Positions 1,060 through 19,126 of a stretch of 33,349 nucleotides of DNA are shown piece after piece. Where the stretch lies: positions 1-33,349 of IMG/VR virus record IMGVR_UViG_3300032321_000208. One strand, 5' to 3'. The notes beneath the pieces are model-generated. The model ran no database searches and was not told where the DNA came from. It saw only the letters and a program-made list of their open reading frames with translations. Positions within the stretch are counted from its first letter, which is position 1. Every line of letters begins with the position of its first letter. The stretch comes from a virus. Lineage: Duplodnaviria; Caudoviricetes. The position numbers and the translations under genes are program-made.

Positions 1060-2307
1060 TTATATTCTTTCTTCAAATTCAGCAATCTTGCCAGTGTCTT
1101 TGTTATAGACTAGAGCAAGTGCTGCTCTAACACTATGAACATAGTTGTTATCTAAGTGCCATCTATCTGTACCAGACAAGCTAGGCATCTGTTGTATTCT
1201 TACACCTTTGACTTCTTTAGCCATGTAGTGGTGTTTATCTCCTGTGTGAACCTCTCTATACTTAGCATATCCAAACATTTGGCTATACTCAGGATGAGTT
1301 GCAAACAATAATGGAAGATCTTCAATCTTACAGTTACCATGATGATAACCAATAAATGTCTCACCCACCATTACACCCTTCACTGTACTATGTTCTCTTA
1401 GAAAAGATACACTAGGATCATTCTTAAAGAATACATCTAGTGCATGTGCTAGGTAATAAGACTTAGTTCTGTCATGATTACCTTGTACTAATACTACCTT
1501 CACATTCTCACAAACCCTACTGATTGCTTTAATAGTGTCTACAAGTAAACTAAAGCCTTGCTCATATTCATCAGCATAATCCATAATGGTGTCCTGTGGA
1601 GTACCATTTGTTGTTTGATGCTGATAGTTATCAGTGTGAAAGAAATCGTTTGATATAGGAAACACAATCGTGTCAATATCATACAATGATGTTACATTAG
1701 AAATAAGAGTTGTAGCAGTTCTATAATATCTTGCACATCTCTCAAATATAGAGTTATCACCATCTATGTGTCTCTTAGCTAAGTGATAATCAGACAGTGA
1801 TAGTTCAACATCTACCATCTTCTGCTCAATATAAGAAGATGTTTGTTTTGGTTCAGGAATGTAGTTAGGAGTATAATTTTGTAGAAACTTTGCAAAGTCC
1901 TCAGCAGTGTAGTCTTTACCTTCTTTTCTCTTAGAGAATACTGAAGAAGTAAATTTACCATTAGGTAAAACCTTAGACCAATAGTTTGTAATAACGTATT
2001 TATCAAGATTAATCTTGTGTAGAGTAGCAAGCTCTATATCATCCTTAGGTTCAAAATCGAGTATCAATGTACTCTCAATAGTTCCTTTCTCAACATTAAC
2101 TTTCTTTACTGATTCATGATACCTTTGAGAGGCAGATTGTAGAATATTAATTGAATCTTGATCATCTTCTCGTAATTCCCTCAATTCTTTTAATAAATTT
2201 TCTACTTCAATTTCGCTAACACCTAGCCTTGCAGCATAGTATGTTTTACTTTTCTTCTGCTTCAAAAGTGCTTGAAGCATTGAAAGTTGATCTTGGTTTC
2301 CCATCAT
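1060..2307 (-). CDS. Calcineurin-like metallophosphoesterase with N-terminal HTH
   Basis: Motifs LSDYH, NDFFH, GNHD, HHG, GDKHH. N-terminal 'TYYAARLGVSEIEVENLLKEL' is HTH-like. Confidence 0.8.
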   Translation of the reverse strand: MMGNQDQLSMLQALLKQKKSKTYYAARLGVSEIEVENLLKELRELREDDQDSINILQSASQRYHESVKKVNVEKGTIESTLILDFEPKDDIELATLHKINLDKYVITNYWSKVLPNGKFTSSVFSKRKEGKDYTAEDFAKFLQNYTPNYIPEPKQTSSYIEQKMVDVELSLSDYHLAKRHIDGDNSIFERCARYYRTATTLISNVTSLYDIDTIVFPISNDFFHTDNYQHQTTNGTPQDTIMDYADEYEQGFSLLVDTIKAISRVCENVKVVLVQGNHDRTKSYYLAHALDVFFKNDPSVSFLREHSTVKGVMVGETFIGYHHGNCKIEDLPLLFATHPEYSQMFGYAKYREVHTGDKHHYMAKEVKGVRIQQMPSLSGTDRWHLDNNYVHSVRAALALVYNKDTGKIAEFEERI

Positions 2308-6104: not shown

Positions 6105-7069
6105 ACAGCGGCCAGTTTTTTCGTTTTAAGTTTCTGCTCTAAGATCAGTAAATCATCTTGGTGATCTTCATCAATCAAGAACTTAACTAATTCTTCCTCA
6201 TCTATAGCAACTTCGAATTCGCCTTGGTAAATTTTACCATTTGGTTTGACTCTATAAATAGAATGAGTGATTGCTTGTTTTACTAAATCTTTAATATGAA
6301 GAAGGCTTTCTTGCATATCTGCAAATCTACCAAACACTTCAATTGTTGAAAGACCTTGATATTTACCATCTTTGAACTCAGTCTGTTTTAAGATGTTGTC
6401 CACTAGGTTATATACCACTTCGTCTTTACTATCTTCTGATACAGGTAAGCCTAGTAAACGAGCTACTTTACGTTTCTTCTCAGGAGTCATTGAATCAAAC
6501 TTGCTAATAGCACGGTTAATCAATTGTTTCTTCTTGAACACGATTGCATTCTCAATCTCATCATCTACTACATAAAACTGTGTATCTGCTGGATATTCAC
6601 CACGTTCCCAAGATTGATAGCTAGAAGCTATTGTTGGATGAACTCTTAACCAAGCAAAAGCTAACTCTTGCATTGGATTAGTGAAATCAAAGAAGTTATC
6701 ACCATCTAGCAATTTAACTGCTTGTACGTGTAACATATCATCTGCACCTTGTGATAAACCATAGTTCCAAAACTTAGAACGAGGACCTAAATCCACATCA
6801 CCTAATGCATATTCTAGTTTACTACGTAAAGTAGTTACACGTTCGATTTCTAATTGTCTTTCAGTTTCATCACCAATACGTCTAATGTATGCAGCTTCAG
6901 GATTTAATCCTGTACGATACTGACCATCAAGTTCTTTGTAAGGATACTTAAACACTCCTGTACCAGGAATACGTGTCATACCTTTTGCAGCAAGACCACC
7001 TTGCATGGTTTGCATTTGTGCATTGTTGTACTCTTTCTTAATAGTAGAGATTTTTCCTAACTTACCCAT
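6101..7069 (-). CDS. Conserved crAss-like protein encoded immediately after MCP (gene-75-like)
   Basis: 322 aa. Synteny with MCP, 'YRTGL' N-terminal motif, helical C-terminal half. Confidence 0.55.
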   Translation of the reverse strand: MGKLGKISTIKKEYNNAQMQTMQGGLAAKGMTRIPGTGVFKYPYKELDGQYRTGLNPEAAYIRRIGDETERQLEIERVTTLRSKLEYALGDVDLGPRSKFWNYGLSQGADDMLHVQAVKLLDGDNFFDFTNPMQELAFAWLRVHPTIASSYQSWERGEYPADTQFYVVDDEIENAIVFKKKQLINRAISKFDSMTPEKKRKVARLLGLPVSEDSKDEVVYNLVDNILKQTEFKDGKYQGLSTIEVFGRFADMQESLLHIKDLVKQAITHSIYRVKPNGKIYQGEFEVAIDEEELVKFLIDEDHQDDLLILEQKLKTKKLAAV

Positions 7070-17796: not shown

Positions 17797-17826
17797 AGGA
17801 GGGAGAGTAACATCTCTCTCCTTTTA
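17797..17826 (+). terminator. Rho-independent terminator
   Basis: AGGAGGGAGA/TCTCTCTCCT stem followed by a T-rich tract, 6 nt after the stop. Confidence 0.8.
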
Positions 17827-18092
17827 TTCCATTATATATATGGGTGGGTGCAGTACGATAGGTAGCACGTAGGGTGGGATATTTACTGTGCATTCCAATT
17901 ATGATGCAATATTACCATTGCTCTCTAGGGAGAAAGTAACTTTTGGGGTAAAATAGCATCAGAATATATATATTGTGTAGATGAAAACAACAACGTGGAG
18001 ACAGTTAGGGATAACTCATGGTATTTTAGCAGGTGTTAGAATACAGTATTGAATAGAAATATATAGCAATAACATAAACTTTATATAGATAT

Positions 18093-18260
18093 ATGAAAAC
18101 ATATATAGTTACATTAGTAGGATGGGATGGTCCTATGAAGAGTGAGTTTGCTCTTGGTTTTAATAGTCAAGATGTATATGATATGTATAGAAATGAGTAT
18201 CCTGTTCAGGATTATCCTCAGATACAATACATAGATGTTTCGCAAGTTCTTAATAGATAG
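18093..18260 (+). CDS. 55-aa hypothetical protein (not in ORF track)
   Basis: MKTYIVTLVGWDGPMKSEFALGFNSQDVYDMYRNEYPVQDYPQIQYIDVSQVLNR*, followed by hairpin GGGAGA/TCTCCC-TTT. Confidence 0.6.
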   Translation: MKTYIVTLVGWDGPMKSEFALGFNSQDVYDMYRNEYPVQDYPQIQYIDVSQVLNR

Positions 18261-18278
18261 GGAGACTAGTTCTCCCTT

Positions 18279-18389
18279 TATCTAATGCATCAGTCCAGCT
18301 TCCCAAGTGTCTGGCAATTGTATATAATAGCAGAGATTCCCAATTAAGGGTGCCATTCTGTGAGTATACAATTGAATGCAGAGGGGATA
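18279..18389 (+). ncRNA. Twister-class self-cleaving ribozyme (type-P1-like, extended P5)
   Basis: P1 TATC/GATA, UAA, P2 TGCA/TGCA, P4 CCAG/CTGG with loop containing TCCCAAG, and GAGGG after P2' giving the T1 pseudoknot. P5 is CAATTGTATA/TATACAATTG. Confidence 0.75.
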
Positions 18390-18611
18390 TTAACATAGAG
18401 TAAGAGGTTTTCAGGCGAATCTGTTGTAAAAATGCCCTCTTATGATAGCATAGCATAAGTGCTGATGAAACAATGCTGGTTAGGAGTTAACAACTAAACT
18501 CACACAACACATTGAGGTGTTGATCAGTTGGCAGACTTGAACTGCATATCTTTATGGTGGAAGGATAAAACCATTATTTATATTCGCACACACAATCAAA
18601 TCAATAAAGAC

Positions 18612-18818
18612 ATGAAAAGTACATTTTTAACTAATGAACAAGTTAATAAGCTAGAAGACATTCAATGGGATGTCATTGCTAATCCTGTATATATTAAACT
18701 ATATCAAGATGAGATGAATAACCAAGCATGGGTTGCATTATGTGATACACTAGGTGTAGACATTAACACAGACCATGTTAGAATATTATGTATTGCAAAA
18801 CAAGTTCCAAACTATTAA
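18612..18818 (+). CDS. Hypothetical early protein
   Basis: Likely start MKSTFLTNEQ at 18612 after an A/C-rich leader. The track's 18528 start lies in hairpins. Confidence 0.6.
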   Translation: MKSTFLTNEQVNKLEDIQWDVIANPVYIKLYQDEMNNQAWVALCDTLGVDINTDHVRILCIAKQVPNY

Positions 18819-18832
18819 ACACACACAATCAA

Positions 18833-19126
18833 ATGAAAAAGTTATTATTTATCGCAGCTATTGCTGCTACAATGTTCAGTTGTAATACTGACATGCACAC
18901 TATTATATTACCTAATGGTGCTAAGGTTGAAGCTAGAGATGTATCACGTACTATTCAATATAGTGCTGGTACTACAGTTTGTATTGTTAAGACTAACACA
19001 TCAAGCTGGAACATCTGTACTGATGGTGAAATGGTAGACACTAGTTATGTACGTTCTTATAATGAGGATGGAAAGACTAAAGTATATACTGTTACACATA
19101 AAATAGGTAAAATATCTGTACGTTAA
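18833..19126 (+). CDS. Predicted lipoprotein
   Basis: Start at 18833 gives MKKLLFIAAIAATMFS-C, a signal peptide II with a Bacteroidota-type lipobox. Confidence 0.75.
   Translation: MKKLLFIAAIAATMFSCNTDMHTIILPNGAKVEARDVSRTIQYSAGTTVCIVKTNTSSWNICTDGEMVDTSYVRSYNEDGKTKVYTVTHKIGKISVR

Follow-up and report, generated by a model that had tools for sequence, protein, structure and literature searches.

A twister-like element is present on the plus strand at positions 18279–18389 of a 33,349-nucleotide phage DNA (IMG/VR record IMGVR_UViG_3300032321_000208, hereafter the window). We favour, as somewhat probable, the reading that it belongs to a phage subfamily of type-P1 twister-like RNAs and is predicted to cut the early transcript at U18283/A18284, likely more slowly in the window copy owing to two private changes beside loop L4. 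Because the element lacks the canonical T2 and L4 arrangements and stays below the Rfam threshold, it is placed as a variant within the twister type rather than as a plain member. Judged from the sequence and its relatives, the window element is predicted to work like a type-P1 twister, in a probably impaired copy.

Genome setting of the element

The window is a 33-kb fragment with an estimated completeness of 29%. Its minus strand encodes the portal, terminase, major head protein and virion proteins, and its plus strand encodes the DNA polymerase, helicases, primase and a Sak4-like annealing protein. Those relatives of its terminase that bear names are distant (27–40% identity) and include the Cellulophaga phages phi17:2 and phi4:1 and the gut phages cr50_1 and cr10_1; we take these phages and the window phage to be crAss-like. 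The element lies in sense orientation in the early region, between a 55-aa ORF that ends at 18260 and a 68-aa ORF that starts at 18612 (Table 1). In relatives, other small ORFs stand upstream and end 17–24 nt before the element.

The surrounding intergenic DNA contains several further structured stretches. A strong terminator-like hairpin (17797–17822) lies 3' of a 135-aa ORF, for whose upstream-encoded protein a search for relatives gave none, and the non-coding stretch 17830–17980 folds into a long stem that is conserved in the closest relatives. Downstream of the element, the non-coding module 18390–18525 contains two hairpins and is common to L368 and L369 and, in part, to contigs of runs X5 and X6; a hammerhead reading of a CUGAUGA-like word near 18462 in this module was rejected on inspection, as stem II is absent. 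The short structured module at 18524–18575 has a 97% match to L374 (over 18539–75), where it stands downstream of a different ribozyme arm. In addition, a CACACAAUCAAAU-like word repeats directly before early-gene start codons in the window, for example at 18587–18603 and 18820–18835.

Architecture of the window element

The segments listed by an earlier reading made from the sequence alone (the sequence-only reading) are all where it had placed them, and its assignment to the type-P1 architecture with intact catalytic positions A18284 and G18381 is borne out by the sequence, the order of the parts and the relatives. The core stems P1, P2 and P4 occur in type-P1 order, with P4 imperfect in the window copy. 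The UA cleavage step is followed by the conserved A and the next A (U18283 A18284 A18285), and the conserved G and A that open the 3' strand of L1 are G18381 and A18382. The cut had been predicted at U18283/A18284; the UAA is in place and corresponds by analogy to U6-A7 of the rice twister, so that the site stands as a prediction. For the proposed T1, the CCC of the loop is complementary to GGG; both sides are invariant in 36/36 relatives and hence show no covariation. P2 had been listed one pair short, as U18290-A18376 extends it. A type-P5 permutation was considered and rejected because the parts run in type-P1 order; the element ends in P1 and its P5 is closed.

Table 1. Features of the twister-like element and its immediate surroundings in the window
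Feature	Coordinates	Strand	Basis or remark
Small early ORF, 55 aa, no family match	18093..18260	+	Its stop codon overlaps the upstream hairpin
7-bp hairpin followed by a weak U-tract; terminator-like, also a P0-type stem	18259..18277	+	Similar hairpin upstream in L372–L375
P1, 5' strand	18279..18282	+	Pairs with 18386–89
UAA; predicted cleavage U18283/A18284, general-acid A	18283..18285	+	Sequence; analogy to rice twister U6-A7, as given in PMC6154101
P2, 5' strand: UGCA 18286–89 and U18290; five pairs including U18290-A18376	18286..18290	+	Covariation of the fifth pair; pairs 3 and 4 covary too
C, predicted one-pair T2 with G18307	18291	+	C and G invariant in 36/36 aligned relatives; inferred, no covariation
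P4 and L4: CCAG/CUGG stem 18295–98/18311–14, loop UCCCAAG 18301–07, two private changes 18308–10	18295..18314	+	Sequence; relatives' model
P5 arm: conserved 10-bp base 18315–24/18365–74 and 40-nt structured content	18315..18374	+	Pair probabilities 0.95–1.0
P2, 3' strand: A18376 and UGCA 18377–80	18376..18380	+	Covariation; fold
GAGGG: general-base G18381, A18382, predicted T1 partner of C18302–04	18381..18385	+	Sequence; agrees with the Rfam twister-P1 consensus line
P1, 3' strand	18386..18389	+	Fold
Non-coding modules, predicted to remain on the 3' cleavage product	18390..18575	+	First part common to L368/L369, last part to L374; precede the ORF that begins at 18612

P2, P4 and P5 form in the lowest-energy fold as the sequence-only reading described them, and P1 is 68% paired in the relatives. 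Folding energy alone is only modestly significant (z -2.1, with 8 of 200 shuffles equally good), and the arrangement of motifs recurred in 0/300 simulated windows with the same dinucleotide make-up. A public assembly (run X1), which may be the source of the window DNA, is identical over 17800–18800 with 0 differences.

Relatives and their detection

A search with the Rfam twister models had been suggested as a check of the sequence-only reading, and no model matches the site. At gathering and E-value thresholds Rfam returned nothing there; RF03160 and RF02684 run against the window's own record were likewise silent at the site, RF03160 even at E 10, and RF02684 gave 0 hits in five records including the window. 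The relatives fare no better. In 12 fetched loci Rfam found the canonical twisters in L011 and L060 and none of the long-arm elements, and in 13 further loci no long-arm element was recognised at gathering level. Since Rfam misses the relatives as well, the absent hit reflects the model rather than the element.

The relatives were collected with a family pattern of three conserved words separated by a 55–85 base gap, with the same words reversed as the control. This pattern retrieved 105 viral loci, against 0 for the reversed control; among the 94 distinct matches listed with the window, 2 are canonical tandem twisters and 1 is seemingly a chance match. The pooled scans yielded 185 complete elements, and C or U followed by C stands after P2 in 182 of them. 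A covariance model built from 36 relatives of similar arm length, with the window left out, matched 18277–18391 at 77.5 bits (E 2.5e-20), while its next-best match in the window scored 13.7 bits (E 0.058); a second copy within the window was sought with this relatives' model and none was found. The conservation and covariation that the sequence-only reading had proposed to look for in relatives were found, with P2, P4 and P5 covarying: 92.3% of the cells in the 36-relative alignment are paired and 19/29 pairs change on both sides, beyond 500/500 shuffles and all slid controls, with covariation counts inflated by the relatedness of the sequences.

The distribution of the element was followed in several collections. 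In 40 long records selected for carrying it, a terminase related to that of the window occurs in 38, and 35 have a single model match. From 80 terminase relatives picked regardless of the element, 39 had enough flanking DNA, and 8 of these carry it, including 7/8 of the closest, always at the same position (L372 and L373 hold the same element). Within one clade, and in many more distant phages, the element is an accessory feature. BLAST searches of 50,697 annotated phages, with the window element and the relative L011 as queries, gave no match, and bacterial and archaeal genome contigs (13/64 parts scanned) gave 2 complete elements among the 120 5'-half matches examined. Complete elements in bacterial genome bins are those of L532 and L590, which are possibly phage contigs binned in.

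The loci fetched by the family pattern also contain other ribozymes, namely a canonical twister-P1 in L011 (2547–2611), tandem canonical twisters in L060 (1497–1596) and a hatchet ribozyme with a long arm in L116 (4773–4939). Tandem or close copies of the element with differing arms occur in L135 (6001–6330), L278, L290, L020 and L153, and those of L135 and L278 directly abut. A short recurring motif, CCUAAGCA...AAACUGCU, lies beside many members, upstream in L183, L214, L111, L148 and L170 and downstream in L370 and L374; it has no Rfam match at gathering level in L183.

A probable rewiring of P2, T2 and L4

In the canonical twister, P2 has 4 bp and is followed by a conserved GC; these two bases, paired with two that bulge out of L4, make up T2, which is stacked on P2 (as described in PMC5408937). 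The window has UC against GU at these positions, so the canonical two-pair T2 is absent and one C-G pair may form. Among 96 distinct cores, the base after P2 and the base before P2' are C-G in 72, U-A in 19, U-G in 3 and unpaired in 2, and over 182 elements this fifth P2 pair is C-G in 148, U-A in 28, U-G in 3 and unpaired in 3. The canonical partner of the base after P2, which is the base after UCCCAAG, is G whatever that base is; the rival partner is therefore invariant. Pairs 3 and 4 of P2 covary as well (C-G 54/U-A 7 and A-U 58/G-C 3 in 61 parsed elements). The covariation between the bases flanking P2 and P2' points to a five-pair P2, a one-pair T2 and a seven-base L4. The canonical 4+2 pairing is likewise fully paired in alignment A1 (C-G 31, U-G 5), but it leaves this covariation unexplained. 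T1 and the single T2 pair never vary (36/36), so covariation is silent on both.

In the subfamily the L4 loop has one bulged base, and the canonical near-invariant G-C closure with two bulged bases is absent. Instead, the base after UCCCAAG pairs with the base in front of the loop, and a scan that fixed neither side of this closing pair gave U-G in 66, C-G in 20, U-A in 3 and C-A in 1 (90 of 110 matches, those with the 3' half). Most C-G cases sit in a form with a long P4 insertion and so represent few independent events. This form (~17/90) carries a multi-hairpin insert of 100–200 nt inside P4, which begins with a conserved GUGG/CCAC stem, and has C-G closing L4; examples are L386 (6883–6620, minus), L454, L455, L471 and L487. 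Taken together, the subfamily core likely consists of a P2 of five pairs, a T2 of one pair and an L4 of seven bases closed by U-G or C-G, and we infer that the six-pair stack of P2 and T2 is kept but built as 5+1 rather than 4+2. What the sequence-only reading described as an imperfect two-pair T2 (UC against GU) is present in its letters and is better read as a five-pair P2 with a one-pair T2.

Such a P2 extension is nearly inactive in the rice ribozyme, yet here it is conserved with covariation beside a shorter L4. The rice mutant A40C, thought to extend P2 and disrupt T2, has an activity of 0.09 (PMC5113685), and G13C/A40G has 0.03 (from the supplement of PMC5113685, values by column count). 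In the literature covered, no description of the rewired form was found; an earlier listing is possible, as Roth et al. 2014, Weinberg 2015 and the CHiTA/PMC11662667 supplement lay outside the search. Additional twister permutations were sought in a 2023 study, which reported none (PMC10085705).

Private changes in the window copy and its predicted activity

In the window copy, UCCCAAG is followed immediately by U18308, and the stretch from the loop to P5 is longer by one base. A purine follows UCCCAAG in 90/90 relatives, whereas U does so in 0/90 and in 0/119 from scans that left this base free. A longer spacing before P5 is found in 3/90 relatives, and an unbroken 5-bp P4, which the window does not have, is usual in them. 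In each of the 8 relatives that carry the element at the same position, the loop is followed by G and the spacing is 6 bases. The bulged P4 that the sequence-only reading had pointed out is indeed there, but it is private to the window copy (0/90, 0/119), so that, like U18308, it looks like damage. A metagenome scan for the P4 form of the window copy returned 46 loci and 0 twisters. Furthermore, the match to two contigs with ~97% identity upstream breaks off after G18307, five letters short of their end, which is a hint rather than proof that close strains differ at the 18308 region and that the change is recent.

Outside this region the window keeps U18290-A18376, C18291, T1 complementarity and both catalytic bases. 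The closure of L4 can be drawn in two registers, one with U-U and a bulge below it and the other with an extra loop U and a C-U mismatch in P4, so that the closing pair reads U-U or a shifted U-G. The second register resembles the rice mutant G13U/C31U, whose relative activity is 0.05 (G13U alone 0.03; supplement of PMC5113685, by column count), although the rice scaffold is without P5 and has an 8-base L4, and its values may not transfer to the window copy. By this match the window copy is likely weakened. According to a published assay of natural twisters (PMC11662667), loop-proximal (position-4) P4 defects have a cleaved fraction of 0.58 and one T2 mismatch 0.53, against 0.76, and examples with upstream P0 stems have 0.40 against 0.85; other P4 imperfections are well tolerated, all P5-bearing examples exceed 0.80 and ~94% of those assayed are active.

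The main rival, in line with the cutting foreseen by the sequence-only reading, is that the copy is a natural variant that keeps full activity despite its extra U and its P4 bulge, which is possible though doubtful. All catalytic and T1 positions are intact, P1, P2 and P5 form in the fold model, the P4 stem (CCAG/CUGG) differs from its orthologs by compensated changes, and the assayed natural twisters speak for tolerance, as ~94% are active, P4 faults are mostly tolerated and P5-bearing examples are all above 0.80 (PMC11662667). Against full activity stand the occurrence of U after the loop in only 0/90 and 0/119 relatives, the value of 0.05 for U-U at the corresponding T2 position of the rice twister (in the PMC5113685 supplement), and P4 pair probabilities of only ~0.37. 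When the upstream hairpin is included, the lowest-energy fold also drops P2 and P4, a result of nested folding, which cannot judge pseudoknots.

It is unlikely that the copy is catalytically dead and survives only as a remnant of recent date, or as a patch of DNA homology shared by exchangeable modules. Decayed copies are not rare, since 11/90 relatives are altered at a catalytic, T1 or T2 position (hand count), P5 arms without a ribozyme exist (L077, L147), and the loss of matching in two close contigs after G18307 suggests recent change; yet the catalytic residues of the window copy are unchanged and all its other stems are intact. Still less probable, indeed very improbable, is that the whole subfamily has lost cleavage and now acts as a structural scaffold for the display of variable RNA arms. 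The replaced canonical T2 G, the near inactivity of a P2 extension in rice (A40C 0.09, G13C/A40G 0.03; PMC5113685) and the failure of Rfam to recognise members would fit a scaffold, but UAA and GAGGG, where the scan left them free, are kept in most of 90 elements, in contrast to the freely varying arms, which is the pattern expected under selection for catalysis. That AT-rich intergenic DNA resembles a twister here by chance, or that the assembly is at fault, is of negligible probability given E 2.5e-20 on an independent model, 0/300 simulations and the same position in 7/8 closest relatives, even though Rfam gives no hit and the folding z is only -2.1.

Upstream hairpin and transcript context

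The sequence-only reading had placed the element just after a terminator-like hairpin in the early region. The hairpin at 18259–77 is real; the terminator scan, however, made no call there, because its U-tract is weak. An intrinsic terminator was taken to be a G+C-rich stem with 5 or more U among the 8 bases after it; the stem of the window hairpin has 7 bp, 4 of the 8 bases after it are U, and the U-tracts of its relatives are longer. The predicted cut lies 7 bases past the last G-C pair of the window hairpin. A hairpin with at least 4 U in 8, located 3–12 bases before the cut, occurs in 35/181 elements (window included) against 41/3167 control UAA sites, and under a stricter hairpin rule 21/25 cases lie 6–9 nt before the cut. 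Intrinsic termination ends transcripts at about this distance, so that read-through transcripts, once cut, would get nearly the same 3' end as terminated ones. Upstream of about 80% of members a terminator-like hairpin is missing, so terminator-linked cutting would be one use of the element and not the rule.

The members lie in coding orientation, with 98,973 same-strand against 15,924 opposite-strand ORF bases around them, and 3/120 are inside a same-strand ORF. In some relatives, tRNA-like genes follow closely after the ribozyme: L375 (after the element at 6627–6762, minus), L372, L394, L396, L119, L133 and L167. tmRNA genes are found in the same early regions as the ribozyme in some relatives.

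In the mechanism that we propose, the window element would cleave the early transcript between U18283 and A18284, probably at a lower rate than the elements of its relatives owing to the two private changes beside L4, and transcripts reading through the weak terminator would be cut where termination would have ended them. The cut would separate the upstream variable gene from a downstream RNA with a 5'-OH end, which would begin with the ribozyme body and include P5 as well as the downstream modules. A structured 5'-OH start resists 5'-end-dependent decay. At the DNA level, the conserved halves of the ribozyme may act as crossover points, with flanks and arm contents swapped between phages.

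The P5 arm and probable module exchange

The long P5, listed as unusual by the sequence-only reading, is the norm in the subfamily (arm median 74 nt, range 10–164). Of the P5 contents, 170 had sufficient length for comparison; they form 130 groups, of which 103 are singletons, and the 40-nt content of the window is among the singletons. In 53 pairs the content is shared; both flanks are unrelated in 39 of these pairs and P4 differs in 34. Across 164 elements (13,366 pairs), 205 pairs share the upstream flank, the content or the downstream flank; 188 share exactly one of these and 2 share all three, while a control with shuffled flanks gave 0. Upstream flank, P5 content and downstream flank thus assort independently across phages. 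Since pairs share mostly one module with unrelated flanks, module exchange is supported, and crossovers likely fall in the conserved halves of the ribozyme. The Sak4-like protein of the window could presumably promote such exchange.

Matches outside a recognisable twister were found for 8/170 contents; inspection of seven places showed a bare arm in L077 and L147 and a degenerate twister in L164. These stand-alone P5-type arms without a ribozyme core lie at ~1325–1390 (minus) in L077 and at ~7000–7100 in L147. The P5 contents failed to stand out as a strongly structured class, with 12% below z -2 against 13% of neighbouring-DNA controls, and a six-member content group showed two-sided change in just 2/23 pairs.

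Relation to known ribozymes

The nearest known system is twister type P1 (RF03160; rice Osa-1-4). As described in PMC5408937 and PMC6154101, it shares with the subfamily the strand order P1-UAA-P2-P4/L4-P2'-GAGGG-P1', which ends in P1, the CCC/GGG complementarity of T1, the general-acid A and general-base G, and an optional P5 at the same junction. The differences are concentrated in the core and the arms. The subfamily has no P3; the T2 dinucleotide is GC in type P1 and YC in the subfamily, whose P2 has a covarying fifth pair that leaves one T2 pair; L4 in type P1 has 8 bases closed by G-C, in contrast to 7 bases closed by U-G or C-G. P5 is present in ~1% of annotated twisters, whereas it is long and apparently constant in the subfamily, about a fifth of which have a 100–200 nt insertion inside P4. 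The permutations type P5 (RF02684) and type P3 have the same catalytic motifs and a P5 helix, but the window element ends in P1 with P5 closed.

Two other natural systems are comparable. The Schistosoma T-variant twisters, as presented in PMC8501958, are likewise natural variants with a relaxed P1, and their cut sets the 5' end of a downstream RNA. They differ, in the same account, in that their variation affects P1 and the adenines at the cleavage site and in that they stand at the start of a retrotransposon; a scan of 38 window ORFs revealed no reverse transcriptase. The theta ribozymes of gut phages (10.1101/2023.06.13.544163) are also a phage ribozyme subfamily near small RNA genes, and a tRNA lies close after the element in L375. 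Theta ribozymes have an HDV-like fold and not that of a twister. The body of the window ribozyme would stay on the downstream RNA.

Implications

Processing of polycistronic transcripts has been suggested but not established for bacterial ribozymes, and the role of ribozymes near phage genes is described as unresolved (PMC6765202). A cut site that overlaps terminator U-tracts, together with independent shuffling of flanks and arms, offers a concrete handle on this role. A broader proposal, unlikely as a whole, is that crAss-like phages carry this strand-switched twister (5-bp P2, one-pair T2, 7-base L4) in active form as a plug-in launcher of host- or defence-acting small structured RNAs, drawn from an exchangeable library in P5 and P4. 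If this were true, the launcher twister would cut out small RNAs and protect their 5' ends, in a geometry in which the rice ribozyme is almost inactive.

The window copy itself would mainly be a natural mutant of the loop-closing region, and the subfamily as a whole offers a natural experiment on the extent to which the twister double pseudoknot is required. In addition, hundreds of phage copies escape Rfam, with ~320 stored stretches estimated, and since these copies are invisible to Rfam, ribozyme counts in phages would be too low.
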